This document shows, piece by piece, positions 13,028 through 53,249 of a DNA stretch of 64,000 nucleotides. How positions within the stretch are numbered: the stretch's first letter is position 1; the number at the start of each line of letters is the position of its first letter. The position numbers and the translations under genes are program-made. Origin of the DNA: Planctomycetota bacterium (lineage in GTDB: Bacteria > Planctomycetota > UBA8108 > SXIK01); NCBI GenBank assembly GCA_965223265.1, contig OZ244999.1, positions 8,000,001-8,064,000 on the forward strand. The letters are read 5' to 3'. The notes under the pieces are model-generated. The model was not told the DNA's origin and did no database searches. It worked only from the letters and a program-made list of their open reading frames with translations.

Positions 13028-16000
13028 ATGCACAGTTGTTGTCGTTTTCGCTTTGTTCCAACGCGGACGATCGCTCGTCCCACCAAACGGTGCGTCAGGC
13101 TGCTCGAGGCGCTGACCCTGCTCCTGTGGCTGGCGAGCGTTCGATCGTCTGCGTTCGCCGACGAGACGTTCTTCGTCTCGTTCGGTAGCGAGTGGCGGTT
13201 CTTTCGAGGTCTTGAGGAACCCACACCCGAGTCGCCTGCGGCCTGGCGCAGCGTTGATTTCGACGACGCAGCATGGGACGTCGGTGCAGCGCCGCTGGGT
13301 TACGGTTTCGACGAGCTTGGAACCGACCTCAACGCGTCCGAGCCGCCGATGGAGGGGAACTACCTCTCCCTCTACGTGCGGCAAAGATTCAGCCTCTCGG
13401 AGCTCGATCGCATTGAGTCGTTGGAGGCGCGCGTCATCGCCGACGACGGTGCCATCGTTTGGCTCAACGGCACTGAGATCGCTCGCATCAATGCGCCCGG
13501 CGATCCAGGCGACCACATCCCATTCGATGAACGGGCCGCGCGCGCGCAGCTGAATCGGCGGGCGCACATCTTTCCGCTCGAAGACTTTCGTGATCTGATC
13601 GACGAAGGCGCGAACGTCCTTGCGGCCCAGGGCCTCAATCGATCGCTGACAAGCAATGACATGCGCCTCGCCATCGAGCTCGTCGACCGCTTCGGACCGG
13701 ACCGCACGCCGCCGGAGCTTGCCGGCGTCGTACCCGTGCCGCAGACGACGACGCGAACTCTCCAGCTCGTGCACGTCGACTTTGGCGAGCCAGTGAGCGG
13801 TGTCGATGCGCTCGATCTGCTGATGAACTCTGCACCGGCACTGAAGGTGCGATCCGATCCGAGCGGTCGTCACTATCGTTTCCTTTTCGCGCCGCCATCG
13901 CCGGGTGCCGTCGAGCTCGCCTGGGCGCTCGACCACTTGATTCTCGACCGCGCCGAAATACCGAACGCGTTCGCTGGCGGCAGTTGGAGCTACCGCTACG
14001 CGCCTGACGAGCCGTTGCCGGCGGTTGTCATCAGCGAGGTCAGCGCTGCCAGTGGCGCTCTCCGCGATGAAAACGGCGACGGCGCCGATTGGATCGAACT
14101 ACAGAACGTCGGCGATACGCTGGTCGACCTCGCGGGCTACGCGCTGAGCGACGACCCGGAGCGCCCCGATCGCTGGCGTCTGCCGACGCTACGCCTCGAG
14201 CCCGGCGCCTTTCTTCTCGTGCTTGCAACCGGCAAAGACCGAGCCGATCCCGCTGCGGAACTCCACGCCAGTTTTAAACTGGATCCCGATGGCGACTCCG
14301 TCTTCTTGTTTTCAAACGACGCGCCGCGACAGCTCGTCGCCGCGCTGCGTGATTACCCCGAGCAGCGCGGTCAACTCTCTTACGGTCGCAAGCGAAGTGG
14401 TGAACTCTCCTACTTCGCAACCCCCACGCCGGGCTCGCCCAACGTCGAGGAGGATGCGATCGATGGCGGCTTCGTCAGCGATCCCGAATTCAGCGTCGAG
14501 CATGGTCACTTCGAGGAGGCTTTCAGCGTTGAGCTCAGTTGCGCCACGACAGACGCGGAACTCTTCTACACCTTGGACGGCAGTTGGCCGACCCCGGAGA
14601 GCGCCCGATACTCCGGGCCTATCGAGATTGACGGCGAGCCTCGACGCGGTGCCGCTGTCCTGCGTGCGACGGCCTTCAAGTCGGGAATGGTTGCCTCGCG
14701 TACGATCACGCGCACCTTCATTTTTCCGACGCACGTGCTGACACAGCCCGCCGACCCAGATGGTTTCCCCGGCACATGGCGCGGCGCGGCGCGCACGTTC
14801 TACGGCATGAGTGCAGCGATCGTGAATGATCCGCGCAACGCGGACCTTTTTCCGGAGGCGTTACTGGCGCTGCCGAGCGTCTCGATCGTCGCCGACGTCG
14901 AAGATCTCTTCGGCGGCACCGGCCTCTACTCGAACCCGACGAGTTCCGGCATCGACTGGGAGCGCCCTGGCTCCGTCGAATTGATCGACCCGACCGGGGA
15001 GGAGAGCTTTCAGGTCAACTGCGGCCTGCGCATCCAAGGCGGCGCCAGCCGCGGTCCCAGCAATTCGCCGAAGCACAGTTTTCGCCTACTCTTCAAATCG
15101 GACTACGGGCCGAGCCGGCTGTCGTTTCCTCTCTTCGGGCGTAGCCGCGTCGAAGAGTTTGATACGTTGATCCTGCGTGCCGGCTACAACAACAGCTGGA
15201 TTCACAGTGACACCTCGCAGAATCGACGCGCCACCTATCTACGCGACCAGTGGGCTCGCGACACGCTGCGCGACATGGGCCAGCCGTCGGCGCGTGGTCG
15301 CTTCGTCCATCTCTATCTCAACGGCCTCTACTGGGGGATCTACAACCTCGTCGAACGTCCGAGCGGCCCGTTTGCCGCCGCCCATCTCGGCGGCAGGCGT
15401 GAGGATTGGGACGCTCTCAACTCTGCGAGCCCCGTCGATGGTGATTCCGCGGCGTGGAGGCAGCTGACGAGCGACGCGCAGGCGGCAACGGGCGAAGACA
15501 AGGAATACTTCGCGATTCTCGATCGTCTCGACGAGACGAACTTCATCGACTACATGTTGACGAACTACTATTGCTCCAACTCCGACTGGCCGCACCACAA
15601 CTGGTATGCAGCGCGACGTCGGGTCGTCGGCGCCGGGTATCGATTCTTTAGCTGGGACGCCGAACGTATCCTCGAAGGGCCGAACGAGTCGGCGGTCGGC
15701 CGCAACGACTCGAACTCGCCCGGCGTGATCTCGGTCCGACTGCGCCAACATGCGGAGCATCGCGTGCGCTTCGGCGATCGGGTGCAGCGCCACTGTTTTG
15801 GCGGCGGCGCCCTGACGGCGGCGGCGGTTGCAGCGCGCCTGCGCAGGCGCGCCGACGAGGTCGAGGCGGCCATCGTCGCCGAGTCAGCGCGCTGGGGAAC
15901 CTTTCGGCGCGAGAACGTACCGCTGACTTATCAGGAGAGCTGGCTGCCGGAGTTGCAGCGTCTTTTCGAAGACTATTTTCCCGTTCGACTTCCGGCCCTG

Positions 16001-18091
16001 GTCAGGCAACTGCGCAGTCGCGACATCTACCCGCAACTCGACGCGCCTCTCTTCTCCAAGCATGGAGGCGAAATTCCCGCTGCGTCCGCGCCGCTCTCGA
16101 TGGCGCTCCCCGAGGCGAGCCCGGCGATTGACGTCACGATCTATTTCACGCTCGACGGCAGGGATCCGCGCCTCGCATTCACGGGCGAGGTGTCGCCGTC
16201 GGCGATGGTGTACACCGGAACCTTCTCCGTCACGGCACCGACGACGGTGAGCGCGCGAGCCTTTGGACTCGCAGATGCGGAGGCGACGGAGCTGACGTGG
16301 AGTGCTCTCACGCAGGCGACTTTCTTGCCTGCGGCGGCCGGGCCGGTTGAGGATGTCGTCGTTTCGGAGATCATGTTTCACCCGCGCTCGAGTCCCAGTA
16401 CCTCTGCCACTGACGACTACGAATTCGTCGAGCTCTACAACGCCGGCGGGGATACGGTACGACTGGGTGGACTCGAGTTCTCGCGCGGTATTCGCTTTCG
16501 ATTCGCGCCGGACGACTTCCTCGCGCCGGGCGAGCGCGCGGTCATCGTGGCGCAAGTCGACACGTTCCAGGAGCGCTATCCTGGTGTCCCCATCCTCGGT
16601 GCCTACGGTGGTCGACTGGCGAACGACGGCGAGACGCTCACGCTTTCGACCGCGGACGGGAGCACGATTTTTTCCGTCGATTTCGACGACGAAAAGTTTT
16701 GGCCGGTGGCTGCCGACGGTCTCGGTCGCTCTCTCGTCCTCGAAGAGCTCGATCGGTCGCCGTCCGATCCGCGCGCCTGGCGCGCGAGCACCCACCGAGA
16801 TGGCTCTCCAGCCGCGCCTGAGCCGCCGCCGAGCCACGGCGCGGTCGTGATCAACGAGGTTCTGCATCACGCCGCAGACCGAAGCGGCGGTGCGATCGAG
16901 CTCTTCAACCCGACCCGTTTTGCCGTCGACCTTGGTGGCTGGTTCATGAGTCCGTCGCGCCGCGACGAGGACGATCTCAGAAAGTTTAGGATTCCGCTCG
17001 GCACAACGCTGCCAGCCGGCGGCTATCTTGTGTTCAGTGATGAGCTGTTTCGTTCGTTCGATGGTGATCCGGACGGGTTCGCACTTGAGCCGCGCGGCGG
17101 CGAGATCTTTCTCGTCGCAGCCGACAGTAGCGGCGAGCTCGACGGCTACATCGACGCGGTTGAATTTGGCCCGACGCCGCCGGGGGTGAGCTTTGGCCGT
17201 GTGGAGACGAGCGAGGGCATCGAGTTTACCGCACTCGAGCGTCCTTCCCTCAGCGAAGTCAACGCCGAGCCGCGGGCTCCCGAAGTTGCGATCAACGAGA
17301 TCCACTACCATCCCGTCGACGGCGACGATGAATTCGTGGAACTCTTCAATCCAGGATCGACCGCTGTCGACCTCGCCGGATGGGAGCTCCGGGGCGTGTC
17401 TGCGCCGGACGGCGAGCCGCAGTTTCTCTTCCCGCCTGGCGCCGCGGTGCCGCCGCGGTCGTATCTTCTCGTCGTTCCGGGGGATCCGGAGGCGTATCGG
17501 TCTCGCCACCAGATTCCGACCGACGCTGTCGTCGTCGGACCGTACGGCGGGGCTTTGAGCAACGGTGGTGAGCGCCTCGCGCTCCTCAAACCACTCTCCG
17601 ATCCGGCTGGTGCAGCGGAGGTTGTGGACAGCGTTCGCTATGACGATCGCGCGCCGTGGCCGGTCGCTGCCGACGGCGATGGCGCCAGTCTCGAACGCGT
17701 TCGCTCCTGGAGGCTGGGCGCGGAGGCGCTGAACTGGACTGAGTCGGCCGACGGTCCGACCCCCGGACGCGTCAACGCCGCGGCGCCACCGATCGATCCA
17801 GCCGGTGGCCTGCAGCTTCCCGGAGACGCTACGGAAGACGGCCTGCTGAATGTCTCCGATCCCATCCGGCTGATCGCACACCTTTTCGGCGGCGCCGACG
17901 TGCACGCTGCCTGCGGTGGGAGTGAGGGCGAGCGCGCAAGGGCTGCGCTTGTCGATGCCGACGGCAACGGCGCGAGCGACCTCGGGGACGTAATCTATCT
18001 TCTCAACTATCTGTTTCGGCAGGGCCCCGAGCACGCGCTCGGCGGGCGGTGCGTCGCGCTGCGTGGATGCTCGGCGACCTGTGTCCAGTGA
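13028..18091 (+). CDS. Large secreted lamin-tail-domain / CotH-kinase family protein with C-terminal dockerin-like domain
   Basis: Several LTD repeats (VISEIMFHP...EFVELYN), FYTLDG Fn3-associated modules, CotH motifs RIQGGASR...KHSFRL, YLNGLYWGIY, NSDWPHHNW, WDAE, C-terminal PGDATEDG...DVIYLLNYLF. Start uncertain. Confidence 0.85.
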   Translation: MHSCCRFRFVPTRTIARPTKRCVRLLEALTLLLWLASVRSSAFADETFFVSFGSEWRFFRGLEEPTPESPAAWRSVDFDDAAWDVGAAPLGYGFDELGTDLNASEPPMEGNYLSLYVRQRFSLSELDRIESLEARVIADDGAIVWLNGTEIARINAPGDPGDHIPFDERAARAQLNRRAHIFPLEDFRDLIDEGANVLAAQGLNRSLTSNDMRLAIELVDRFGPDRTPPELAGVVPVPQTTTRTLQLVHVDFGEPVSGVDALDLLMNSAPALKVRSDPSGRHYRFLFAPPSPGAVELAWALDHLILDRAEIPNAFAGGSWSYRYAPDEPLPAVVISEVSAASGALRDENGDGADWIELQNVGDTLVDLAGYALSDDPERPDRWRLPTLRLEPGAFLLVLATGKDRADPAAELHASFKLDPDGDSVFLFSNDAPRQLVAALRDYPEQRGQLSYGRKRSGELSYFATPTPGSPNVEEDAIDGGFVSDPEFSVEHGHFEEAFSVELSCATTDAELFYTLDGSWPTPESARYSGPIEIDGEPRRGAAVLRATAFKSGMVASRTITRTFIFPTHVLTQPADPDGFPGTWRGAARTFYGMSAAIVNDPRNADLFPEALLALPSVSIVADVEDLFGGTGLYSNPTSSGIDWERPGSVELIDPTGEESFQVNCGLRIQGGASRGPSNSPKHSFRLLFKSDYGPSRLSFPLFGRSRVEEFDTLILRAGYNNSWIHSDTSQNRRATYLRDQWARDTLRDMGQPSARGRFVHLYLNGLYWGIYNLVERPSGPFAAAHLGGRREDWDALNSASPVDGDSAAWRQLTSDAQAATGEDKEYFAILDRLDETNFIDYMLTNYYCSNSDWPHHNWYAARRRVVGAGYRFFSWDAERILEGPNESAVGRNDSNSPGVISVRLRQHAEHRVRFGDRVQRHCFGGGALTAAAVAARLRRRADEVEAAIVAESARWGTFRRENVPLTYQESWLPELQRLFEDYFPVRLPALVRQLRSRDIYPQLDAPLFSKHGGEIPAASAPLSMALPEASPAIDVTIYFTLDGRDPRLAFTGEVSPSAMVYTGTFSVTAPTTVSARAFGLADAEATELTWSALTQATFLPAAAGPVEDVVVSEIMFHPRSSPSTSATDDYEFVELYNAGGDTVRLGGLEFSRGIRFRFAPDDFLAPGERAVIVAQVDTFQERYPGVPILGAYGGRLANDGETLTLSTADGSTIFSVDFDDEKFWPVAADGLGRSLVLEELDRSPSDPRAWRASTHRDGSPAAPEPPPSHGAVVINEVLHHAADRSGGAIELFNPTRFAVDLGGWFMSPSRRDEDDLRKFRIPLGTTLPAGGYLVFSDELFRSFDGDPDGFALEPRGGEIFLVAADSSGELDGYIDAVEFGPTPPGVSFGRVETSEGIEFTALERPSLSEVNAEPRAPEVAINEIHYHPVDGDDEFVELFNPGSTAVDLAGWELRGVSAPDGEPQFLFPPGAAVPPRSYLLVVPGDPEAYRSRHQIPTDAVVVGPYGGALSNGGERLALLKPLSDPAGAAEVVDSVRYDDRAPWPVAADGDGASLERVRSWRLGAEALNWTESADGPTPGRVNAAAPPIDPAGGLQLPGDATEDGLLNVSDPIRLIAHLFGGADVHAACGGSEGERARAALVDADGNGASDLGDVIYLLNYLFRQGPEHALGGRCVALRGCSATCVQ

Positions 18092-25859: not shown

Positions 25860-26455
25860 AACGTCGTCGCCTTTCTTCTTTTCCGTTACGCGACTTTGCG
25901 TGCGTTTGGCCTTTGGCGGCCGGATCGACGCTCGTGCTCCCCGCGCGACGCGGCGCATCAGGGTGCGGTCTGGAGGCGACGAGGTGTCGCCCGAAGAAGT
26001 CTCCGCTGGTCGCCGAACCTCGTCAAGGGCCTATAAAGCGACGCTCCCCGCTGTCGCTCGCGCGAAGTTAGCCTGGTGACGCACGCTGCGGCGTTTTGGG
26101 TCCTCGCCTGATTCCTCAGGCTTGAGAGACGCAGATCCGCGTGCGGTTGTTGGGGGCGCCTCGATTCTGCGGTAGGATGGCGAAGCGAAAGGTTATCGGT
26201 CGATCTCAACAGGGCGGAACGATTCACGACGCGCCGATCACGGCAGCCACTGTGCGGAGATCGAACTTGTCAGAGCCAGATTCAGCGCAGGGTCGTCCGT
26301 TGCATTGCCGTTGGTTTGCTGTCGATTCTTGCCCCACCGCGCGCGAAAAAGAGACGCTAGGAAACGCCTTCGACCTGGCGCGTGGCACACCGTTCGCGAC
26401 GTCTTCGCCGTCTTGCGGCGGCCTGACTGCTCGACGCCTTTGCCGTCGTCCCGGT

Positions 26456-29400
26456 GTGGGTCGCTGGTGGGGAATCATCGTCGTGGTCGGCGTCTGCGGA
26501 GTGCTGAGCGGACCCCTGCACGCGCAGCTCTCATTGGCCATCACGGAGTTCGTCGCTGCCAATGCCGACGGTCTCCGCGACGTCGATGGCGATGCCGCGG
26601 ACTGGATCGAGATCTACAATTTCTCGGGCACGCCGCAGCCGCTGACGGGGTGGAGTCTGACCGATGCCCGTTCGGATCCGCGCAAGTGGGTCTTTCCTGA
26701 CGTCGAGCTCGCGGCGCGGTCGTTTCTCGTCGTCTTTGCTTCGGGCAAGGACAAGCTCGCGCCTGACGGCGAGCTCCACACGAACTTTCGGCTGCGTCGC
26801 GACGGCGAATATCTGGCTCTCGTCGACCCAGGTGGCGACGTGATTTCAGAGTTCGCGCCGCAGTACCCTGCGCAGCACCCGTTCGCAGCCTTCGGCCCAC
26901 GACTCGAGACGAGAACGCTGGGCGAGTGGCGCAGCGGCGATTTGAGGTACCTCGTGCCAACCGGCGAGGAGCTCAGCCTCGAGTGGGTGACTCCCGATTT
27001 CGACGACAGCGCATGGAGCCGAGCGCCTGCGCCCATCGGCTTCGATTTCACCGAAGAGTTGAAGGTCGCTCCTGCGGTGCGCACTGACGTCAGCGAAGGC
27101 ATGCTAGGCGTCAACCCCACCCTGTACGCGCGCCTGACGTTTGAAGTGGAGAGCGTGCTCGACGTGTCTTCCCTTCTCCTGCGCATGCGCTTCGACGACG
27201 GGTTCATCGCGTACCTCAACGGTGTTGAGGTGGCACGCGCGGCTGCACCTAGCGAGGCGGGATGGCGCTCCACGGCGACCTCCGAGCGGCCGGGGGCGCT
27301 CGCCGTTCAGTTCGAGCACTTCGCTCTACCGAGCGCGATCGAACACCTACGCACAGGAGAGAACGTTCTCGCGATTCATGCGCTCAATGCGATCGCGGCC
27401 GACCCGGACTTTCTCTTGGCACCGGAGATCGAGGTCGTGAGACTCCTGGGACTCGACGCTTCCGAGCACGAGTTTAGTGCCGAGCCCACGCCGGGGGCAG
27501 CGAATCGCCGCGGCTTTGCGCACGTGGCGCCGCCGCCAACGGCGTCGCACGCCGCCGGGGTTTACCATGACGCCTTGTCGTTATCCTTCGCCTCGTCGCT
27601 GGCAAACGCGACGATTCGCTTCACGACGGATGGCTCCGCGCCGACCGAGTTTTCGCCGGTTTTTTCAGCGCCGCTCCTCGTCGATGTCGACACAATCGTC
27701 AGGGCGCGCGTCTTCGCGCTTGACCATGTGCCGAGCCCTATCGGGACGCGCGAGTTCATTCTGCTCGACCCCGAGCTTCTCGACTTCTCGTCGAACCTGC
27801 CGGTGTTCGTCCTTAGCACTTTCGCGCGGCAACTCGACCGCCGCGAGTTCGCGCCGGCGCTCTTGGCGCTCTTCGAGCCGGAGGAGGACGGCGGGCAAGC
27901 ACGTCTGGCGGCGGCGCCCCACCTGACCCACTCCACCGGGCTGCGCGTCCGCGGCTCGAGTACGGGTCGCTCCGCGAAGAGCTCGTTCGCCGTCGAGATC
28001 TGGGACGACGACCAAGATGATGAAGCGCTGGAGATTCTTGGCATGCCGGCGAGCTCGGACTGGGTTCTCTACGGCGCTCTCGACTATGATCCGGCGCTCA
28101 TCCGCAACGACTTCATGTATGCGCTCAGTAACCGCATCGGGCGTTACGCCGTCCGTACTCAGTTCTGCGAGGTCTTCTCCAATCCACGCGGCGGGCGCAC
28201 ATCGATGGCGCACTACATGGGCGTCTATTCATTCATGGAGCGCATCAAGCTCGGCCCTGAGCGTGTCGACGTCGAGCCTCTCGGGCCGGCCGACAACGCG
28301 GAGCCGGAGATCAGCGGCGGCTACATGCTGAAGATCGACCGCGGCGCACCTGGAGACGTCGGCCTCGGCGCCGGCGGGCAGGGAATGCTTTTCGTCGAGC
28401 CGAAGCGACCGACCGCGGCGCAGAAGGCGTGGATCGAGTCGTACATCAACGAGTTCGCTGCCGTCCTCGATAGTGACGGGTTCACGGATCCGCAGAACGG
28501 CTACCACAAGTACATTGGCGTCGACGAGTGGATCGACCACCACATCCTCAACGAGTTCGCTCGGAATCCGGATGGTCTCGCGCTCAGCACGTATCTGTAC
28601 AAGCAGCGCGGCGGCAAGCTCAACTTCGGCCCGATTTGGGATTTCGATCGCACCATGGGTTCTATGGACGGGCGCTCGACGGACCCCTACAGTTGGCGAC
28701 CCGGAACGTTCACCGATTTTCGCTGGTGGAGTCGCCTCTTCACCGACCCCGCCTTTTGGGAAGCCTATAAGGCTCGCTGGGGAGAGCTCCGGCGCGGCCC
28801 GATGCGCACCGAGAATCTGCTCGCGCTGGTGGATTCGCTGGTCGAGACGATCGGCGAAGCCGGTACGCGCAATGAAGTGCGCTGGTTTAGCTCGCGCATA
28901 CCTGGCAGATGGATGGAGGAAGTCGAGCGGCTCAAGAGCTGGATCGAAGCCCGGGTCTTTTGGATCGATTCGCAGTTCGTTGCGCTGCCGCAGCTGAGCC
29001 ATCCCGGCGGTCGTGTCGACAGCGGCTTTGAGCTTGAGATCACAGCGGACGATGCGGGGGCGATCTACTACACGCTCGACGGCACGGATCCGCTCGTCGA
29101 CTTCGCAGTGTCGCCGAGCGCGACGCGCTACAGCGGGCCGATTCGCATCACGCGCAACGTGCGGGTGACGGCGCGCAGCCAGACGGGCGACGGGCGCTGG
29201 AGCGAAGCGGTGTCGGCGCCGTTCGTGGTCGAGCTGATGCCGCTGGTTGTCTCCGAGATCATGTACAACCCCCTTGAAGGTGCCAACCTGGAGTTCATCG
29301 AACTGGTGAACGCCGGCACGGAACCGGTGGACCTTGCGGGCGTGCGATTCGTCGCTGGGGTCGCATTCGACTTTTCGCGCCTCGACGACACAGCGCTGGC

Positions 29401-29989
29401 CCCGGGCGAGTATATCGTGGCGGCCCGGAGCGCTTCTGCGGTGAAGGCAAAATACGGAGACGTGGTGCGCGCCGTCGGGCCAGTGGGGGGATCGCTTCAC
29501 AATAGCGGCGAGGAGATTGTGCTCTTGGGACCGCTCGGGGAGGAGCTGCAGCGGTTTACTTACGACGGAACCTGGTTCACCGCTGCTCGTGAGCAGGGGC
29601 ACTCGATTGTGATCATCGACCCCAGCGGGCCGCCCTCCGCATGGAGCGAACGAGACGGCTGGCGGGCGAGCCTCGAGCCAGGCGGCTCACCCGGTCGATC
29701 TGAGGCCGATGAAACATCATCACGACGACTCGTCGGCGACGTCCACGCCGACGGCCGCCTCAACGTCGCCGACGCCATCGCGATTCTTCTTCACCTGACA
29801 CGGGGGGGCATCGACGCGTCGTGCAGCGAGGGGAGCAGCCGCAGCTTCGTGTTGGATGCTAGCGGCGATGGGAGCGTCGATCTCGGTGACGCCCTTCACC
29901 TCTTGAACTACTTGTTCCGCGGCGGCGAGGCGGGTGCGCTGAGCGACGGTTGCCGTGTGATCCCGGACTGCGCCGCGGCCTGTCCGTGA
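26456..29989 (+). CDS. Second lamin-tail-domain / CotH-kinase family protein with C-terminal dockerin-like domain
   Basis: AITEFVA...DWIEIYN LTD, RVRGSST...KSSF, SDWVL, RNDFMY, NPDG, GPIWDFD, C-terminal VGDVHADG...DALHLLNYLF. Start uncertain (frame open from 26141). Confidence 0.85.
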   Translation: MGRWWGIIVVVGVCGVLSGPLHAQLSLAITEFVAANADGLRDVDGDAADWIEIYNFSGTPQPLTGWSLTDARSDPRKWVFPDVELAARSFLVVFASGKDKLAPDGELHTNFRLRRDGEYLALVDPGGDVISEFAPQYPAQHPFAAFGPRLETRTLGEWRSGDLRYLVPTGEELSLEWVTPDFDDSAWSRAPAPIGFDFTEELKVAPAVRTDVSEGMLGVNPTLYARLTFEVESVLDVSSLLLRMRFDDGFIAYLNGVEVARAAAPSEAGWRSTATSERPGALAVQFEHFALPSAIEHLRTGENVLAIHALNAIAADPDFLLAPEIEVVRLLGLDASEHEFSAEPTPGAANRRGFAHVAPPPTASHAAGVYHDALSLSFASSLANATIRFTTDGSAPTEFSPVFSAPLLVDVDTIVRARVFALDHVPSPIGTREFILLDPELLDFSSNLPVFVLSTFARQLDRREFAPALLALFEPEEDGGQARLAAAPHLTHSTGLRVRGSSTGRSAKSSFAVEIWDDDQDDEALEILGMPASSDWVLYGALDYDPALIRNDFMYALSNRIGRYAVRTQFCEVFSNPRGGRTSMAHYMGVYSFMERIKLGPERVDVEPLGPADNAEPEISGGYMLKIDRGAPGDVGLGAGGQGMLFVEPKRPTAAQKAWIESYINEFAAVLDSDGFTDPQNGYHKYIGVDEWIDHHILNEFARNPDGLALSTYLYKQRGGKLNFGPIWDFDRTMGSMDGRSTDPYSWRPGTFTDFRWWSRLFTDPAFWEAYKARWGELRRGPMRTENLLALVDSLVETIGEAGTRNEVRWFSSRIPGRWMEEVERLKSWIEARVFWIDSQFVALPQLSHPGGRVDSGFELEITADDAGAIYYTLDGTDPLVDFAVSPSATRYSGPIRITRNVRVTARSQTGDGRWSEAVSAPFVVELMPLVVSEIMYNPLEGANLEFIELVNAGTEPVDLAGVRFVAGVAFDFSRLDDTALAPGEYIVAARSASAVKAKYGDVVRAVGPVGGSLHNSGEEIVLLGPLGEELQRFTYDGTWFTAAREQGHSIVIIDPSGPPSAWSERDGWRASLEPGGSPGRSEADETSSRRLVGDVHADGRLNVADAIAILLHLTRGGIDASCSEGSSRSFVLDASGDGSVDLGDALHLLNYLFRGGEAGALSDGCRVIPDCAAACP

Positions 29990-44057: not shown

Positions 44058-44293
44058 CCACAGTCCGGAAAACGGCAATCCGGGAAAGAAGTGAAGTCGG
44101 TGATCTCAACCAGGCCCCTCGATTGTCGGGCCGAATGTTGAGGTCACCAAGGTCGAGCGAACGTCGAGCGAGCTCGTGAAGTGATTTTGAGTCGCGGCGC
44201 CGGTGCTCCCGGTGCGTGGTAGCGGCCTCGTCGTGAGGGATGCCTACCGGCGACCCATGCCGCTCGCGTCGCGCCGAGCAGAGGGACTCCCCC

Positions 44294-47200
44294 ATGAAGT
44301 CAGTCTTCTTCTTCTGTGTGATCTTTCTCTCGATGCTGACGGTGTTTCTCCTTGCCACCGGCGAAGTGCAGCGATGGTTCACTGACACCGGCAGCGGATT
44401 TCCCGAGTTTGAGCGCGTTCGTGCCGACGACGACGCGGAAAACCTTCTCATGTTCCCCTGGTGGGACACTGAAAACGGCCGCGTTGGATTTCGCATTCGG
44501 GCGGAACTCAATCAAGAGGACCTCGGACAGCACCAAAAGATCGATGACATCAGTCAACTGACGCTGCGCAACGGTGTGCTCGAGATTCCCCACGAAGGAC
44601 TCGAAGTGTCGCCGAGCGAGGGCGCGGAGGCGACTGCTCCAGACGCTGAGCAGTCGATCGTCGTCGAGTTCGACACAGCCGAGTGGTCTAAGGAGAGGAA
44701 AAATGTGCTGCTGCGCAGCGGTAAGGGGCGCACCGAAGACGGCTACGAATTCCAGTTCGAGACGCTTTCGTTCGCCTATCAGCAGGGTGATGATCACCAG
44801 GATTCGATCGTGCGCTCCGATCGGCCGGTGAGTATCGAGAATGAAGCGTTTTCGCTTTCTAGTCCTGCTGGGCTGGAGGGCCGGCTGGTTGCCGGCGAGC
44901 TGCGTAGCATCCGTTTTCTGCCCCCGGTGACGGCGAAGATCGATCCCAGCCGGGCTCCGGGGTTTGCGCCCGGGCTTGCGGCAGAGGGCGGAGACAAAGA
45001 GAACGAGAAAGAGGGCGGGCACGCCAGTGAATCCGGGGCCGCGACGCAAGGCGGCAAGGACGCCAAGGAGAAGCGCGGTTTCGTTGTCGTCACCAGCCAA
45101 GGGCCACTCGACCTGGAGCGGCTTCCGGGCGCTTCGGCCTCGGCGGTCCGGGACGGCGAGCACACCGCGATCACGTTTCGCGACGACGTCGTGATCCGCT
45201 CTGCCCCGGTCTCGACCGCCACCAAAGCCGCGGCAGCGTCTGGTTCGCGGTTCGAGTGCCAGCTTCTCGAGCTCTTTTTCGTCAAGAGAGGTAGCCGAGT
45301 GGTGCCCGATGGGGCGCGGGCGACCTGGCCGGGCGGCCGGGTTAAGGCCTATTTTCAGCCGGAAGGTGGCCGCGATCGGGATCTCTATGTGATCGACGGC
45401 GAGCGACTGGAGTGGCGCACCACCGCGGGCGCGGATGGCGACCCAGCCTCCGCCGTGCAGGAGGCTTTTCTTCTTGGGCGACCCACGCTCACGGGTGGCG
45501 CAATGCAATTCGAGGCGGAGCGGGCGACTCTGGGCGTGACCACCGGGCACGTGCTTCTCGCTCGCGTCAGCGGCACGTTTCGACGACCGGAGCCGAAGCG
45601 TCCGAAAGCGCACGGCGCCGGAACCGAAGAGCAGCGCCGGTCGCCCTTTCCATCGGACTGGAACGTCGAGGCCGACGAGATCGAATTCGTGTTCGACGCC
45701 GAGCGGCGACTTTCTCACTTCGTCGCGCGTGCCGAAGATCCGGGCGGGTTACGTCTCGTCAGCCGCGAGAGCGAGGACGGCGTAGATGGCAGCGCGGAGC
45801 GGGACGCAGCGGGGATGAGCTTGGACGCAACGCATCTGCGCTACGATGTTGGCGAGCGAGTGGTGACGATTTCTGGCAAGGGGGGCGACAAGCCAGTCGT
45901 GAAGCAGGGGCCGAACGAGATGAAAGCGGAAGTTCTCAAACTCCTTCTTGCCGAAGAGGTCGCGGTGTTCGAGAACGATGTCCACGCTATCATCGGCGAT
46001 CCGGAATCGTTCGCGGCGCTGCGTGGCGAGCCTCCTACGGCCGAGCCTCAGCCCGCGAATGGCGAGCCCGAGAGTGCCGAGACAAAGAACCAGACCGCCA
46101 AGGAGAACCGGAGCGGTCTTGGGCGACTCCTGGGCGACGGCGGACAGGGGGTGATCGAGCTGCACGCCGCGTCTCTGCGCATCGGCGGCGCGGACGATCG
46201 CATCGGTGCGCTGAGCGCCAGGGGGACGCCGGTGCGCGTCGAGATCGCGGGGCGCCGGCCGCGGGTTCTCGAGGCCGCGAAGCTTGACCTCCTCGACGGT
46301 CAAGTGATTCTCGAGGGTGATGTGAATCGGCGCGCCCGGCTTGAGGTCGGCGACGCCCGGCTGCAGGCGGGACGAGTACGCTTCGAGGAGCTGCACCTCA
46401 CCGCGATACTCGAAGAATCGGTTTCGCTCCAGCTGCGCAAGTCGGGTAAACGCCTCACGGTCCGCGGCGGGCGTGCGGAGGTGCAGTTTTATTCGCAGGA
46501 GGAGATGAAGGGACGGCAAGAGTCGACTGGGCCGCTCCGGGATCTCGATGAAGTGAAGCTACTCCATGTTGAGGGCGACGGCGACGATAGGGTCGAATTC
46601 GCGGGCGGCGGCGACGCGGAGGAGCCGACGCTGCGCGCCAGATCGCAGACCCTTCTGTGGGACGGGGAGACGCGCGAGCTGCGCCTCTTCGGTGACGGGG
46701 AGCAGGAGATTCGTCTGGCGAGCGACCGGCTGGACGGGCCGGTTTTCGCGCGGGAAATCCTCTACCGCGCGGAACAGTCGCTGATCGAGCTTCGCGGCAG
46801 CGTGCGCGGTGAAATCGCCTATCGCGTCGACCGCGAGCGTCCTTCGAAAAGCGGGCGTCGTCAGAAACTGTCGGAGCGTACCCCCACGCACTGGAAACTG
46901 GAGACCAGCCGTCTCGAGATCCGCCTCGGCGATGGCTCAGGAGACGGCACGTCGTCGAGGGGCGGATCCTCAAGTGACGATGCGTCAAGAGACCTTTTCG
47001 TGGAGTCCGTGCATGCGCGGGAATGGGTTCACCTGAAGAACGCGGAGCTGCAGCTGCAGCTCCTCGGCGATGAGCTGCGCTTCGACGCTGGGTCGAACAA
47101 GATCCACGTATTCTCCCCCGCCGGCAGGCCACAGACGTTTCAGCGCGGTACCTCGTTCGCCGCGCCGACCGAGACGGTTGCCGGTCAAGACGAGTCGGGA

Positions 47201-47680
47201 GGCGCCCCAGCTCCAGCATGGAAGACCGACAAAATCATCGCCCAGGAGATCTGGCTGCTGCCCTACTCGAATGCGCGCGCCCAGTTGGGGAGCCCGAGCC
47301 GTTGGCTTCTGATCAGCTTTCATCACGACGTCAAGGCGACGTTCCACCCAGCCGGTGAGACGCTGCTGTCACGGTCGGAGGGCGCGTGGAAGCTCGATGC
47401 CGAGGACGAGTTGACGCTACAGATCGATCCGGAGCGCGACGCCGCACACGCCGTGGTGAGCGCCCGGGCCGTCGGCAACGTTGTCTTCAAGGCTGGCGAT
47501 AACACCGCCACCGCTGAGACGGCTGAGTACGAGGGGCGGAGCCGCGACATGATCCTTCGGGGCCGTCCGGCACGGGTCACATACGACGGCACGACCGTCG
47601 AGAAGCGGGTTTTCCGGCTGGTGTACCAAACGGGAGGCGGGTTCAAACTGGAGTCGCGGCCGCACCCGCGCAGGTCATAG
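44294..47680 (+). CDS. Very large membrane-anchored LptC/LptA(OstA)-like beta-jellyroll repeat protein
   Basis: N-terminal TM helix. LptC-like SDRPVSIE...GLEGRL...IRFLPPVTAKID. C-terminal LptA-like AVGNVVFKAGDNTATAETAEYEG...ILRGRPARV. Beta-rich throughout. Confidence 0.65.
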   Translation: MKSVFFFCVIFLSMLTVFLLATGEVQRWFTDTGSGFPEFERVRADDDAENLLMFPWWDTENGRVGFRIRAELNQEDLGQHQKIDDISQLTLRNGVLEIPHEGLEVSPSEGAEATAPDAEQSIVVEFDTAEWSKERKNVLLRSGKGRTEDGYEFQFETLSFAYQQGDDHQDSIVRSDRPVSIENEAFSLSSPAGLEGRLVAGELRSIRFLPPVTAKIDPSRAPGFAPGLAAEGGDKENEKEGGHASESGAATQGGKDAKEKRGFVVVTSQGPLDLERLPGASASAVRDGEHTAITFRDDVVIRSAPVSTATKAAAASGSRFECQLLELFFVKRGSRVVPDGARATWPGGRVKAYFQPEGGRDRDLYVIDGERLEWRTTAGADGDPASAVQEAFLLGRPTLTGGAMQFEAERATLGVTTGHVLLARVSGTFRRPEPKRPKAHGAGTEEQRRSPFPSDWNVEADEIEFVFDAERRLSHFVARAEDPGGLRLVSRESEDGVDGSAERDAAGMSLDATHLRYDVGERVVTISGKGGDKPVVKQGPNEMKAEVLKLLLAEEVAVFENDVHAIIGDPESFAALRGEPPTAEPQPANGEPESAETKNQTAKENRSGLGRLLGDGGQGVIELHAASLRIGGADDRIGALSARGTPVRVEIAGRRPRVLEAAKLDLLDGQVILEGDVNRRARLEVGDARLQAGRVRFEELHLTAILEESVSLQLRKSGKRLTVRGGRAEVQFYSQEEMKGRQESTGPLRDLDEVKLLHVEGDGDDRVEFAGGGDAEEPTLRARSQTLLWDGETRELRLFGDGEQEIRLASDRLDGPVFAREILYRAEQSLIELRGSVRGEIAYRVDRERPSKSGRRQKLSERTPTHWKLETSRLEIRLGDGSGDGTSSRGGSSSDDASRDLFVESVHAREWVHLKNAELQLQLLGDELRFDAGSNKIHVFSPAGRPQTFQRGTSFAAPTETVAGQDESGGAPAPAWKTDKIIAQEIWLLPYSNARAQLGSPSRWLLISFHHDVKATFHPAGETLLSRSEGAWKLDAEDELTLQIDPERDAAHAVVSARAVGNVVFKAGDNTATAETAEYEGRSRDMILRGRPARVTYDGTTVEKRVFRLVYQTGGGFKLESRPHPRRS

Positions 47681-47942
47681 TCCGTCTCATTCGATCCCAA
47701 TCCTGGGACCGAAAGAATCTCGGTAAAGGATTCGCTCGGCGAGCAAAAGCCCAAGAGACCTTGGCCTCCCGGAAAACTCGTTCGGCCAGGCGGGTTCGAA
47801 AAGGCCCTGCTCGAGGTTAGACTTAGGAGTTGTCGATCGCGGTCCGAGACGGGCTTCGAGTCGACTCGCTCGCTTCTGGGCGGTGGTCGTCGTGCCGCGC
47901 CGTCGCGGGGCAGCCTCAGCGAACCTGCGGAGTGATCAATTC

Positions 47943-48557
47943 ATGCCTTATCTGCGTTTTCTTGGGCTCACCGTGCTGATCTGTCTTCCTGGCTGCAAGT
48001 CGTTCGAGCCAGCGCTGTTCAACCACGGTGACGGGCTCCGGTCTCAGACCGTCTTAGTGGTTCCGTTCGCTGAGATTCACCAGGATCGCTGGTATTTAGA
48101 GTCGATCCGCGGCGCTCAGCTGGCGCGCAACCTACAGAAGTGGGCGGCGCGCAATGGCGACGCCGACTTCATGGACACAGGCGACGCGAGGCCGATACTC
48201 AACGCGATTCGGGACTGGACCGAGTCGGCGATCACTCGTCGCGACTGGCAGAAGCTGCTCGCTGGCGCCGAAGTCGACTACGTCGTCGTCGGAGACATTC
48301 TCGAGTGGCGTCCGCGGAGCGATCGCACGATCGGTCTCCTTGACGCATCGATTCGGGCGCATTACCGCGTCCTGGACGGCGCGACCGGGCGAGAAAAGTA
48401 CTTCGGAATCACGAACTTGCAGTTGGGGGGGCTCGACGACGACGCCGACATCCCCATGCTCGAAATGGGGAGCCATCAGCAGAAAGTGGAGGAGCGGCTG
48501 CTTGTAGGACTGGCCAGGAAGATCGGCCAGGAATTGTATGGATACTACCGGCACTGA
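47943..48557 (+). CDS. Lipoprotein (CsgG/LptE/LpoB-like alpha-beta fold, uncertain)
   Basis: Lipobox LPGC, VLVVPF, VDYVVVGDI, YRVLDGATG. Confidence 0.65.
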   Translation: MPYLRFLGLTVLICLPGCKSFEPALFNHGDGLRSQTVLVVPFAEIHQDRWYLESIRGAQLARNLQKWAARNGDADFMDTGDARPILNAIRDWTESAITRRDWQKLLAGAEVDYVVVGDILEWRPRSDRTIGLLDASIRAHYRVLDGATGREKYFGITNLQLGGLDDDADIPMLEMGSHQQKVEERLLVGLARKIGQELYGYYRH

Positions 48558-48839
48558 CGCTAAAATGGCAGAGGTGACGTTGTCTGAGCGTTTTCTCGGG
48601 CAGCGATCCAGACAACTCGAGAACTCTCTCGAGGCTCTATCCCTCCACACACTGAGTTGCGTCGTCGCCGGGGTTTCTCCGTGAGGCCTTGCCGGTAGCA
48701 GGTAGAGAAGTGGAGGCGCCAGAGTCTCGTCCCGAACGGTCGGGAGGTTTCGGGCGGGCCAGCCTCGTCGAAGCTTTCAGCTGATGGCCGCGGGGACCCT
48801 CGGTTTGGGCCATAGCCCAACGGTTTCCAAGGTGATGCC

Positions 48840-49112
48840 ATGCAGACGATTCTTCTCTCCTTTGCGTTCGCCCCTGGTCCGTTCGAACTGGTCGTGATTC
48901 TTTTGGTCGGGCTCTTGCTCTTTGGCAAGAGGCTCCCCGAAATCGCCCGGAATCTGGGCAAAGGCGTCGTCGAATTCAAGCGCGGTTTGAAGAACGTCGA
49001 GGACGAGATCGAGCACGCTGAATACACGCCGCCGCCCAAGAAGCTCTACCGGGACGACGAAACGGGCTCGCAGGCGCCGGCTAACGGACCGACGACCTCG
49101 TCCGACGGCTAG
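48840..49112 (+). CDS. tatA: Twin-arginine translocase TatA/E subunit
   Basis: PGPFELVVILLVGLLLFGKRLPEIARNLGKGVVEFKRGL. Confidence 0.92.
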   Translation: MQTILLSFAFAPGPFELVVILLVGLLLFGKRLPEIARNLGKGVVEFKRGLKNVEDEIEHAEYTPPPKKLYRDDETGSQAPANGPTTSSDG

Positions 49113-49151: not shown

Positions 49152-49874
49152 TTAGCGACCGACTCGTAACCGCTCGCCCAGGGCGAGCGGCAGCCCTGCC
49201 TTTTGCACCTTGTGGACGACCGAATCGATGTCGTAGCGGAAGCGGTGCAGTTTGACTTCGCGTGTTTCGGTATCGAAGGTGGCGCAGCAGGCACGAGGGT
49301 CGCGATCGCGGGGCTGGCCGACGCTGCCGACGTTGACGATGATCCGCGTTTCGTCGCGCACCTTGACGCTCTTCTCCAAGCTATAGGAGATGAAACTCTC
49401 TTGGATGAAGATAATTGGCACGTGAGAGTGGCCGATGAAGCAGACGGGTGCCTGCATCTGTGCCATGGAGAGGGACGCGTCATAGCTGGTTTGGACGTAG
49501 TCGAAGAGCTCAGGCGAGCACAACGCGCCATGGACGATGTCGAGGCCATCTAGATGGTGAAGGAGCGGCAAGGCTGACAAGTACTCGACTTCGGCGCTCG
49601 AGAGTTCGTTTCGCGTCCACAGGGTCGCTTCACGAGCCAGCAAGTTGAATGTTTCGATGCTGAGCTTGTCGGCGACCGCGAGATCATGATTCCCAGCGAC
49701 AACAAATTCGGCGACACTGCGAATTCGCTCGACGCAGCGCGCTGGCTCCGGGCCGTAGCCGACGATATCGCCCAAGCAAATGAATGAGTCGATAGACTCG
49801 CCCCTCAGCCCGTCGAGCACGGACTCGAGGGCGTCATAGTTGCCGTGGATGTCTGAGAGAATGGCGTAGCGCAC
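49152..49874 (-). CDS. Metallophosphoesterase (calcineurin-like)
   Basis: SDIHGN, GDIVGYG, GNHD, HG, GHSH, NVGSVGQPRD. Confidence 0.92.
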   Translation of the reverse strand: MRYAILSDIHGNYDALESVLDGLRGESIDSFICLGDIVGYGPEPARCVERIRSVAEFVVAGNHDLAVADKLSIETFNLLAREATLWTRNELSSAEVEYLSALPLLHHLDGLDIVHGALCSPELFDYVQTSYDASLSMAQMQAPVCFIGHSHVPIIFIQESFISYSLEKSVKVRDETRIIVNVGSVGQPRDRDPRACCATFDTETREVKLHRFRYDIDSVVHKVQKAGLPLALGERLRVGR

Positions 49875-50080
49875 AGGTCGCGGCTCGTCATTAATTGTGA
49901 AATATTTAGAACTTATGCACCAGGGGCTGGCGAACTTGCGGAGTCCGCGAGGCCTGCCTCAACTCAGCATACAACGCGAGCGGAGACGCAACAAAGGTGA
50001 CGAGGTTATCAACCTCAACGCCCGCTTTCTCCGTGGCACGATAATTGCTAAGGATTGTCTCGGTCCGAGCGAGTACGAGA

Positions 50081-51199
50081 TGTTCCACGTGGAACAAATG
50101 GTGCTCCGAGACCAAATGTTCCACGTGGAACAATCATCTCGTGGTCCGGGCGGAGGCTGTCTGAGCCAGTTCTCTGAGAATGTTCCACGTGGAACATTTG
50201 TTCTACGGACCGAAATGCCCGAGATGTTCCACGTGGAACAATTTGGGTTCTATCGCGAAACGGGTCGCGATTGTTCCACGTGGAACAATCCCTTTTCGCG
50301 ATGACGGCAGTATGTTCCACGTGGAACAATGGTGCTCCGAGACCAAAATGTTCCACGTGGAACAATCATCTCGTGTCCGGGTGTGGAGGCTGTCTGAGCC
50401 AGTTCTCTGAAAATGTTCCACGTGGAACAATGCATGTTCTACGGCCGAAACGCGCCCGAGATGTTCCACGTGGAACAATCTATTGCGAAACGGGTCGTGA
50501 TTGTTCCACGTGGAACATCGTTTTCGCGTAGGACGGCAGAGTGTCAGTTTTCCGGGATCACGTTCCACGTGGAACAAACGCGCAGTCATGTTCCACGTGG
50601 AACAATGGTGCTCCGAGCCCAAATGTTCCACGTGGAACAATCTCTTTTCGCGATGACGGCAGTATGTTCCACGTGGAACAATGAGCTACGCGCGCAGGCA
50701 TGGTTCCACGTGGAACCATGGTGCGCCGAGACCGAATGTTCCACGTGGAACAATCATCTCGTGTCCGGGGTGTGGGCGCGGTCTGAGCCAGTTCTCTGAA
50801 ATGTTCCACGTGGAACAATCCTTTTCGCGATGACGGCAGTATGTTCCACGTGGAACAATGAGCTACACGCGCAGGCATGGTTCCACGTGGAACCATGGTG
50901 CGCCAAGACCAAATGTTCCACGTGGAACAATCTCGTGTCCGGGGTGTGGGCGGTCTGAGCCAGTTCTCTGAAATGTTCCACGTGGAACAATGCGTGTTCT
51001 ACGGCGCAAAACGCCCGAGATGTTCCACGTGGAACAATGAGCCACGCGCGCAGGCATGTTCCACGTGGAACCATGGTGCGCCGAGATGTTCCACGTGGAA
51101 CATTTTCGTTTGCAGCGGACCTCGACTCTCTGGCAAATGTTCCACGTGGAACATCTTTGGTTCCCCCCGAACACAAACCTAGATGTTCCACGTGGAACA
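50081..51199. repeat. Dense array of 26 parS palindromes (TGTTCCACGTGGAACA) with recurring spacers
   Basis: Sites start at 50081, 50117, 50181, 50225, 50272, 50313, 50349, 50414, 50462, 50502, 50561, 50589, 50624, 50665, 50702, 50737, 50802, 50842, 50879, 50914, 50974, 51021, 51057, 51087, 51138 and 51184. They match the bacterial chromosomal parS consensus TGTTNCACGTGAAACA-like, and the array lies directly upstream of parAB. Confidence 0.95.
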
Positions 51200-51274
51200 C
51201 CTCTCCGGGTGGCTTGAAACGCGCCCTGAGCGCCACTAAGATCGAACCAGGCTGTTTCTCCAGGAGTTCCCGGA

Positions 51275-52039
51275 TTGGGCACCATCATCACGGTTGCGAG
51301 TCAGAAGGGCGGCGTTGGCAAGACCACGTCCGCCGTGAACCTAGCGGCGAGTCTCACCCTAGCCCACCAGGAAGTCTTGCTGGTGGACCTCGACCCCCAG
51401 GGCAACGCGTCGAGCGGCGTCGGCGTCGAGCCGGGCCGATCCCCGGTTTTGTCTCAGTCCTTGGGCGGGGATGGAGATCTGCGGCCGCTGGTTTCTCCGA
51501 CCTGTTTCGAGCACCTTTCGGTGCTCGCTTCGTCGGCCGAACTGTCGCACCTTGATTTGATCCACTCGGTACAGACGACCGGACTGCGGCGTTTTCGCGA
51601 TCAACTCGCGACACTCGCTGCGGACTTTGACTACGTCCTGCTCGACTGTCCTCCCTCGCTCGGCGGTTTGCCGACGATCGCGCTCGCCAGTTGTCGATGG
51701 GTTCTGATACCGATCCAGTGCGAGTACTACGCGATGGAGGGGTTAAGCCAGATATTGCCAATTATCAAAAAAATACAGAATGATATAAATCATGACTTAG
51801 AGATCGGAGGGCTGCTTTTGACCATGTACTCCGACGAATTGGAGCTCTCCCAAGATGTGTTGAGGGAAGTCAAGGGGTACTTCGGCGACCAAGTCTTCGA
51901 GAGCATCGTGCCGCGCGACGTCGTCTTGGCCGAAGCCTCAAGCCATGGTCAGCCGGTCTACTTCTATGCCCCGCTGTCGCGCGGCGCGTGGAGCTACATC
52001 GAACTCGCCAAGGAGGTGCTCGAACATGGGTGGGCGTAA
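51275..52039 (+). CDS. parA: Chromosome partitioning ATPase ParA/Soj
   Basis: Deviant Walker A QKGGVGKTT, DLDPQGN, DCPPSLG, PIQCEYYAMEGL. TTG start after AGGAG. Confidence 0.95.
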   Translation: MGTIITVASQKGGVGKTTSAVNLAASLTLAHQEVLLVDLDPQGNASSGVGVEPGRSPVLSQSLGGDGDLRPLVSPTCFEHLSVLASSAELSHLDLIHSVQTTGLRRFRDQLATLAADFDYVLLDCPPSLGGLPTIALASCRWVLIPIQCEYYAMEGLSQILPIIKKIQNDINHDLEIGGLLLTMYSDELELSQDVLREVKGYFGDQVFESIVPRDVVLAEASSHGQPVYFYAPLSRGAWSYIELAKEVLEHGWA

Positions 52040-52973
52040 ACTAGGACGCGGACTCGATCTTCTCATTCGAAAGCCTGCGGAGCCGCCTCCACCGCTTCCC
52101 GAAGAGACCCCACGAGTCGCCGAGGCGGGGTCGGGCGCGGCGGTCGAGAGCGACGAGTTTCAGCTCGTATCTGTCGACCCAAGAGCGGTGCGCGCGAATC
52201 CCGATCAGCCTCGTAAGCAGTTTGATGAAGAAGAGTTAGAGGCTCTCAAAGCGTCGATCTCGCAGGACGGGATCCTGCAGCCGCTTGTCCTGCGACGCGT
52301 CGACGACAGCTACGAGCTGATCGCCGGGGAGCGCCGCTTGCGCGCCGCACTCGAGCTCGACCTGCAGCGCGTTCCAGCAATGCTGACGGACTTCGACGAC
52401 GACCGCTTGCTCGAACTTGCTCTGGTCGAAAACATCCAACGCCAGGACTTGAACCCGATCGAAGTCGCCAAGGCCTACGCGCAGCTCATGGCGACGAAGA
52501 ACTGGACGCAGGAGGCGCTTGCCCGCTCCCTCGGCCTGTCGCGCTCAAGCGTTGCGAACTCTCTGCGTGTGCTGGACCTTCCGGAGGACATGCAGGTCTC
52601 ACTCGCAAAGTCGCAGATCAGCCCCGGGCACGCGAAGGTCCTGCTTTCCATCGACGAGGAAGAGCCGCGCCGCGAACTCTTCGAGCGCATCGCGGAGGAG
52701 CGCCTGACTGTCCGCGAGCTCGAGGAGGCCCGAGACGCCGCGCCGCAGCCAGCGCCTGCTGGCGTGGAGGCGAGCGTTCCCCCGTCGTCCCACCGTCCGC
52801 GTCCCCAGAAGAGGCGCGCCGACCTGCGACGCCTCGAAGAGGAGATGAGCGAAGCCATTGGGACGAAGGTGTCGATTCAGGAGCGCCGCGGCGGGCGCGG
52901 CAAAGTCACGGTGGAGTTTTACTCCGCAGACGACTTCGCCCGGATCCGCGAGCGCCTGACTGGCAGCGACTGA
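52026..52973 (+). CDS. parB: Chromosome partitioning CTPase ParB/Spo0J
   Basis: N-terminal LGRGL, NPDQPRKQF, GILQP, AGERRLRA, ENIQRQDL, HTH TQEALARSLGLSRSSVANSLRVL...GHAK. Confidence 0.96.
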   Translation: MGGRKLGRGLDLLIRKPAEPPPPLPEETPRVAEAGSGAAVESDEFQLVSVDPRAVRANPDQPRKQFDEEELEALKASISQDGILQPLVLRRVDDSYELIAGERRLRAALELDLQRVPAMLTDFDDDRLLELALVENIQRQDLNPIEVAKAYAQLMATKNWTQEALARSLGLSRSSVANSLRVLDLPEDMQVSLAKSQISPGHAKVLLSIDEEEPRRELFERIAEERLTVRELEEARDAAPQPAPAGVEASVPPSSHRPRPQKRRADLRRLEEEMSEAIGTKVSIQERRGGRGKVTVEFYSADDFARIRERLTGSD

Positions 52974-53073
52974 AGCGCGTTTCACGCCTTTTTTTCAGGG
53001 TCGAGGCAGCGTCGAGCCGGCGCCTGTGGAAGGTGAGCTCTGGTCTTTTTTGTCCATGCGTTCCGACCGAGTG

Positions 53074-53082
53074 TGTGGATAA
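53074..53082 (-). promoter_or_regulatory. Perfect DnaA box (TTATCCACA)
   Basis: TGTGGATAA on the + strand in the parB-tolC intergenic region; single copy. Confidence 0.45.
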
Positions 53083-53249
53083 TGTCCGGGCTCGAGCGCC
53101 CTCCAGGTGACCTTCGACGTCACCATTCGGTGCCGGACGGAGCTGCCCGTTTCCGCCCGAAATCCCGCAAGGGGCGTCGACACTAGCGCCCGACGCGCCA
53201 TCGCGCCTGGGCGAAAACACCTTGGACGAGAATCGGTTGCGTCGCCTAC

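Follow-up and report, generated by a model that had tools for sequence, protein, structure and literature searches.

The 64-kb window (the whole stretch of DNA analysed here) carries 26 chromosomal parS sites in a single run at 50081..51199, immediately upstream of its own parA and parB genes. Among the uninterrupted chromosomal parS runs that we could compare, none was longer or denser. The array very likely serves a planctomycete-like bacterium as its chromosomal centromere; its perfect parS sites lie 5' of the parAB genes, and the copies are under selection and presumably load ParB clamps. It is an extreme instance of a known arrangement, real and selected, and it reveals no new mechanism.

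Composition of the parS array

An exact-match count over the whole 64-kb window found 26 invariant copies of the 14-bp core GTTCCACGTGGAAC, all at 50082-51198, and 100 dinucleotide-preserving shuffles of the window yielded no match to this core. At 22 of the 26 sites the core lies within the full palindromic 16-mer TGTTCCACGTGGAACA. The other four sites deviate at the outermost positions only and keep the core intact; they read CGTT.. (50561), GGTT..AACC (50702 and 50879) and ..AACC (51057). The 26 palindromes are separated by 25 spacers of 14-51 bp (no strand is assigned to the array), with start-to-start distances of 28-65 bp and a mean of 44.1, and they span 1.12 kb at a density of one per 44 bp. 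Between the end of the final 16-mer (51199) and the start of the parA reading frame (51275) lies a gap of 75 bp. The G+C content is 53.8% in the array and 63.6% in the window. In the remaining 63 kb of the window, no parS-like site with up to three mismatches to TGTTCCACGTGGAACA or TGTTTCACGTGAAACA was found.

When tested for membership in the chromosomal parS family, the array sites matched the 16-bp consensus tGTTNCACGTGAAACa, with 26 exact GTTCCACGTGGAAC cores. A review table gives this 16-mer, TGTTCCACGTGGAACA, as the parS of Pseudomonas aeruginosa, and the parS consensus of Myxococcus xanthus is given as TGTTCCACGTGGAACG (Iniesta 2014, PMC3899335). A preliminary description of this DNA had counted 26 cores and 22 full 16-mers by hand and had recognized the motif as chromosomal parS. 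Both counts proved exact in our motif search, its coordinates, its spacing of 28-65 bp and its 75-bp gap to parA were all reproduced on recomputation, and the identity of the motif is borne out by the published P. aeruginosa and M. xanthus sites.

The spacings show no helical phasing in a Rayleigh test modulo 10.0, 10.5 and 11.0 bp (R = 0.21-0.26, p = 0.18-0.33). Site phasing defines the centromere families of type Ib/II style, and a phased-repeat centromere of this kind was rejected because the array spacings keep no helical register.

The array is unlikely to be an artefact or another kind of repeat

Misassembly often arises at tandem repeats, and it could be argued that the true locus holds few parS sites and that the repeat was inflated by the assembler. 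However, no exact direct repeat in 50000-51280 is longer than 46 bp, so that ordinary reads would bridge every repeat. The units moreover differ from one another by substitutions and indels, the 177-bp period described below has 91% matches, and two spacers are unique. The contig that holds the database copy of the ParB protein (315 aa) is 9,179,496 bp long, a length that implies an assembly of finished quality. Misassembly of the array is unlikely on these observations, and an artefact that turned a few sites into 26 is highly improbable. It is more improbable still, to the point of being scarcely credible, that the array is no centromere at all and that a repetitive extragenic palindrome, a CRISPR-like element or a terminator array merely resembles parS. 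The palindromes do score as terminator-like hairpins (12 against 1.8 expected), but these calls simply follow from their being palindromes. The core agrees exactly with parS consensus sequences in the literature, occurs nowhere else in the 64 kb and adjoins parAB; the 16-bp repeats with recurring spacers are unlike CRISPR, and Rfam gave no match.

Two further candidates were rejected. A CRISPR, RNA or tRNA element was discarded after Rfam returned 0 matches and ARAGORN 0 genes in the window. Coding across the array was discarded as well, the open reading frame at 49897-50304 having a GC3 of 0.57, compared with about 0.75 in real genes, and no Pfam match.

The array adjoins a chromosomal-type parA-parB pair

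The parA gene (51275..52039, + strand) encodes a 254-aa Soj-type Walker ATPase with a KGGVGKT motif and without an N-terminal HTH domain. Its start codon is a TTG at 51275, and AGGAG stands nine bases upstream. The protein matched the domains AAA_31 (1.9e-46), CbiA (9e-26) and ParA_partition, and tblastn found it to be 35-46% identical to the products of parA genes that adjoin parS clusters in other phyla, among the matches listed. The parB gene (52026..52973, + strand, in its 315-aa form; the longest reading frame begins at 51945) shares its first 14 nt with the end of parA. Its product carries ParB_N, HTH_ParB and ParB_C domains and matches TIGR00180 with 168 bits, compared with a cut-off of 58. 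The closest ParB relative is 59% identical, and those ParB relatives that are named, a small number, carry the label Planctomycetota.

Window ParB contains an N-terminal LGRGL motif, GERRLRAA and ENIQRQDLNPIE, and in the alignments its GERRLRAA falls on the corresponding motif of 1vz0 and 6sdk. The GERRxRA motif of the ParB N-terminus binds CTP. The best structural-chain alignments were to the Spo0J proteins of Thermus and Bacillus and to Myxococcus ParB; Noc chains were aligned as well. All parS-binding ParB proteins are reported to carry R173 and G201 (Caulobacter numbering), whereas Noc carries Q and R at these positions. At the specificity positions window ParB reads LGLSRSSVANSLRVLDLP...ISPGHAK and Noc reads LGKGQSTIANKLRLLKLP...ITERHAR, which gives R and G in the window protein; mapped through the G-K-S-R motif, these two residues would correspond to Caulobacter R173 and G201. 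Judged by their sequences, the two genes are a canonical chromosomal-type parA-parB operon.

A sigma-70-like promoter candidate, TTGAAA-17 nt-TAAGAT, lies between the last parS and parA at 51214..51242 (+ strand), at a frequency not above chance (one site, compared with 0.8 expected in shuffles). No intrinsic terminator was found after parB in a scan of 52974-53249. On the other side of the array, a calcineurin-like metallophosphoesterase gene (49152..49874, - strand; Metallophos_2, 7e-20) is divergently oriented, its start being 206 bp away from the first parS. We count it as a neighbour of the array rather than as a component of the partition system. The gap of 206 bp between the two (49875-50080) opens with an A+T-rich stretch at about 49888-49919, within a window of 64% G+C; this stretch may hold the divergent promoter.

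A short way upstream of the partition locus, three open reading frames without Pfam or NCBIfam match are found at 44240-47680 (+), 47883-48557 (+) and 48560-49039 (-), encoding 1146, 224 and 159 aa. Codon bias is gene-like in the 1146-aa and 224-aa frames, and the 159-aa frame was not selected by it. Elsewhere in the window, 12611-18091 and 26141-29989 (both + strand) encode giant proteins of 1826 and 1282 aa, each with CotH kinase, lamin-tail (LTD) and chitobiase C-terminal domains; the two are paralogous surface-type proteins. FG-GAP, NHL, and CotH plus LTD giant proteins are all encoded in the window.

With regard to the replication origin, neither dnaA nor dnaN was found in the 64-kb window, and there is no GC-skew switch, the cumulative skew climbing across the whole 64 kb. 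Three DnaA boxes within one mismatch are present, compared with 2.35 expected, and they form no cluster. The sole perfect DnaA box (53074-53082, - strand), in the 276 bp that separate parB from a TolC-like gene, is within chance.

The array grew by duplication of multi-site blocks

The 25 spacers can be assigned to families, whose order along the array is ABCDE ABCDF G AEH ABEH ABCH A I J. By these families, sites 1-5 (spacers A-B-C-D-E) and sites 6-10 (A-B-C-D-F) are two older duplicated blocks at 50081..50560 (no strand assigned), and outside the cores they are 74.7% identical (142/190 columns). Tandem Repeats Finder revealed a younger higher-order repeat at 50621..51086 (again without strand), with a period of 177 bp, about four parS per unit, 2.6 copies and 91% matches, and between sites 13-16 and 17-20 the identity outside the cores is 92.6%. 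The last three parS, at 51087..51199 (likewise without strand), are closest to parA and have unique spacers (families I and J), spacers 24 and 25 being without relatives inside the array. Periodicity is confined to about 177 bp and about 232-248 bp, and the site spacing itself is variable. An asymmetric extended flank, A-[16-mer]-A, is present at 16 of the 26 sites, as direct duplication would predict. The identities of 74.7% and 92.6% outside the cores imply duplications of different ages. The array has therefore been enlarged by repeated duplication of 4-5-site blocks at different times, and it preserves the trace of its own growth.

Each of three family C spacers (50196-50225, 50429-50462 and 50989-51021) holds TGTTCTACGG, followed by a GAAA-like stretch. 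The TGTTCTACGG stretch may be an old, heavily decayed parS that was already decayed when it was duplicated, in which case perhaps not every past copy was preserved.

The cores are kept by purifying selection

The spacers and the cores of the array have fared very differently. In the spacers, 64/664 aligned cells differ from the family consensus (9.6%; 18% in pairwise comparison, indels included), whereas in the cores none of 364 cells (26 sites of 14 bp) has changed. At the spacer rate, about a quarter of the 14-bp cores would be expected to be unchanged, compared with the 26/26 observed. A site-by-site check together with a 3-mismatch scan of the window found no array copies with one to three core mismatches. 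The combination of invariant cores, diverged spacers and the lack of copies with one to three mismatches points to purifying selection on every copy, and indicates that every parS copy now present is kept by it.

Small parS clusters upstream of parA recur in other phyla

A collection of species-representative genomes was searched for three parS cores 12-42 bp apart, which identified at least 122 loci (L001-L122). The 122 loci listed are an arbitrary sample, not a census, and the genome of the window is not among them. They span Actinomycetota (Collinsella, Streptomyces), Acidobacteriota, Bacillota, Bacteroidota, Proteobacteria, Parcubacteria and nine planctomycete MAGs. With a run defined by start-to-start distances of up to 70 bp, the longest run was three sites at 91 of the 122 listed loci, four at 19, five at six and two at three; one locus reached six sites, and two (L070 and L053) reached seven. 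The window run of 26 thus compares with a maximum of seven among the 122 listed loci, and the most sites at any listed locus were 12 in 1.2 kb (L029). The nine planctomycete loci among the matches listed carry 3-4 parS each. The GTTCCACGTGGAAC variant of the core accounts for 89/467 parS sites in the listed loci.

Flanks of about 2 kb were examined for 80 of the 122 listed loci. In these, the cluster lies upstream of the parA start at 42 loci and elsewhere at two, and no ParA was found in the flank at 36; for all 122 listed loci the corresponding counts are 61, 2 and 59. At the listed loci, cluster and parA are 42-741 bp apart (median 79). Collinsella dominates this median; about two dozen Collinsella species among those listed have three sites at a pitch of 39-40 bp, exactly 79 bp from parA. 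Like the window array, the listed small clusters comprise at least three parS, 23-55 bp apart, and typically stand 42-250 bp upstream of parA; unlike it, their runs hold at most seven sites, where the window has 26 in one run. Tight clusters of at least three parS, 42-250 bp upstream of parA, were seen in several phyla (for example L010, L012, L034, L076 and L079), with Actinomycetota, Acidobacteriota, Bacillota and Planctomycetota represented among the small clusters. A tight, promoter-proximal parS cluster thus looks like a general arrangement across phyla, and we found no description of it in the related parS literature examined. The recurrence of clusters in the parA 5' region suggests a widespread arrangement, of which the window array is a greatly expanded version.

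The largest other arrays, of 8-12 sites, are those at L029 (2001-3229), L070 (1836-2913), L025/L026 (on the same contig), L023 (1209-2117) and L053 (94-735). The L029 array is made of repeated three-site modules. No ParA or ParB match was found within the 2-kb flanks of these arrays, implying that some dense parS arrays do not adjoin parAB.

Comparison with known centromeres

According to the survey of Livny 2007, as quoted by Iniesta 2014 (PMC3899335), most species have 1-4 parS, several have 5-8 and a few have 20 or more. The chromosomal cluster of M. xanthus is given as 22 parS in 3 kb, about 4 kb upstream of parA in a 9.1-Mb genome (Iniesta 2014, PMC3899335), or as 24 parS about 30 kb from ori (Harms 2013, PMC3778016), with most of the 24 within 3 kb (2021 preprint). 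Binding of M. xanthus ParB to the consensus is reported by EMSA (Iniesta 2014, PMC3899335; Harms 2013, PMC3778016). As these sources describe it, the M. xanthus cluster resembles the window array in its 14-bp core, its 22-24 copies, its position as one cluster upstream of parAB and a genome of about 9.1 Mb. It differs in having about one site per 139 bp in both orientations, compared with one per 44 bp in a direct higher-order repeat with asymmetric flanks in the window, which makes the window array about 3-fold denser; and it lies about 4 kb from parA, whereas the window array ends 75 bp from parA.

The sopC centromere of the F plasmid is built of 12 direct repeats of 43 bp, and every one of them contains an inverted repeat of 16 bp (PMC3177203). 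It is similar to the window array in carrying tandem 16-bp inverted-repeat sites for a ParB-family protein, at a pitch of 43 bp compared with a mean of 44 bp. It is dissimilar in being on a plasmid, in having another motif, bound by SopB, and in having a fixed 43-bp unit in 12 copies, whereas the window array belongs to a chromosome, consists of universal parS motifs at variable spacings of 28-65 bp, arranged in blocks of about 177-240 bp, and stands upstream of parA. The sopC repeats lie downstream of sopAB. Membership in the sopC type was rejected on the spacing of 28-65 bp and the lack of a fixed 43-bp unit in the window array. A plasmid or SopB-type system was also rejected, given the contig of 9,179,496 bp, the chromosomal parS motif and a ParB closest to chromosomal ParB/Spo0J structures.

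Arrays of this size have also been made in the laboratory. With synthetic 7x, 13x and 26x parS, the condensation force of Bacillus subtilis ParB grows with the number of sites, and the authors state that more parS give a higher ParB loading rate (Balaguer 2021, PMC8299390). The synthetic 26x and 39x DNAs have many clustered sites like the window but are laboratory constructs from re-ligated 6- and 13-site fragments (PMC8299390); the window array is a natural counterpart with the same copy number as the synthetic 26x DNA. A literature search, judged by titles and the openings of abstracts, found no parS or ParB work in Planctomycetes/Planctomycetota.

The preliminary description had called the array unusually concentrated. 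With regard to the length of the run this holds, 26 being extreme against a maximum of seven among the 122 listed loci. As a statement of exceptional density it went too far: M. xanthus is about 3-fold less dense, sopC has a pitch of 43 bp, and tight clusters are common. As for equally dense arrays in other taxa, tight clusters of at least three sites occur in many phyla, with a longest run of seven among the matches listed.

Proposed function and alternative readings

We propose that ParB dimers would bind each palindrome through their HTH domains, and that the bound ParB would close into CTP-bound clamps and slide onto the flanking DNA. Many loading sites at a pitch of about 44 bp would then give a higher loading rate and a higher local density of ParB, and one compact, robust partition complex may form for the ParA-driven segregation of a chromosome of about 9.2 Mb. 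This complex would probably also load SMC. The likely mechanism is the standard CTP-dependent loading of ParB clamps. One parS suffices for segregation in several species (PMC8299390; Jalal and Le 2020), so that the benefit of 26 copies is one that we infer. Clamps leaving toward parA would have to cross the 75-bp promoter region, which makes a feedback of the array on parAB expression probable as well.

The preliminary description had proposed ParB-CTP clamp loading at the array and suggested that spreading ParB could autoregulate parAB and the divergent phosphoesterase gene. The promoter-proximal position lends mild support to these proposals, since small parS clusters stand 42-250 bp upstream of parA in many phyla among the loci listed. 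A review notes that chromosomal ParA is without the HTH domain used for autoregulation in plasmid systems, and that P. aeruginosa ParB represses promoters beside intergenic parS. The same literature reports that loss of Spo0J in B. subtilis leaves the expression of parS-adjacent genes unchanged, and that in V. cholerae there is little local regulation by ParB (review). The B. subtilis data mean that autoregulation is not a given.

Two readings deny that the high copy number serves segregation. In one, the centromere is functional but its size is neutral, unequal recombination or slippage having inflated a small promoter-proximal parS cluster, so that the additional copies contribute nothing beyond a few sites. 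The array is visibly made by block duplication, a single parS is enough in other species and the nine planctomycete loci among the matches listed carry just 3-4 sites, all of which agrees with such inflation. Neutral copies, however, should decay like the spacers, yet 26/26 cores are unchanged, and even between the oldest blocks, which are just 74.7% identical outside the cores, the cores are still intact; we consider neutral inflation unlikely. In the other, the array would chiefly sense ParB and repress parAB (perhaps also the phosphoesterase gene), or buffer free ParB, segregation being served equally well by one site. The distance of 75 bp to the parA start, the small clusters at the same promoter-proximal position across phyla among the matches listed, the chromosomal ParA without an autoregulatory HTH, and the repression of parS-adjacent promoters reported in P. 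aeruginosa are all compatible with an operator or titration array. Against them stand the reports of little local ParB regulation in B. subtilis and Vibrio cholerae. In other phyla 3-4 sites are evidently enough at this position, so that regulation alone leaves the number of 26 unexplained, and we regard a chiefly regulatory role as decidedly unlikely.

The close packing of the sites may have physical consequences of its own. A simulation in the 2021 preprint assumes that ParB dimers cannot pass one another, and dimers bound at such closely spaced parS could get in one another's way when sliding. In a bolder form of this idea, up to 26 side-by-side ParB dimers would block mutual escape, forming a largely static, saturated, kinetochore-like core flanked by sliding clamps, together with a copy-number-tuned parAB operator. 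We hold this to be rather improbable. If true, it would represent another physical regime than that of the one-to-few-site loaders studied so far, and it might be selected in a very large chromosome (about 9.2 Mb) of a phylum with unusual cell division.

Implications

Jalal and Le 2020 name two open questions about parS: the reason for copy numbers between 1 and more than 20 although a single site often suffices, and the cause of the clustering of the sites. The window array is a natural extreme in this respect, combining the copy number of the synthetic 26x DNA, the pitch of sopC and a signature of selection on every copy. As a centromere that would load ParB clamps by the standard mechanism, it may offer a natural test case for how the number of loading sites relates to the size of the partition complex and to parAB feedback.
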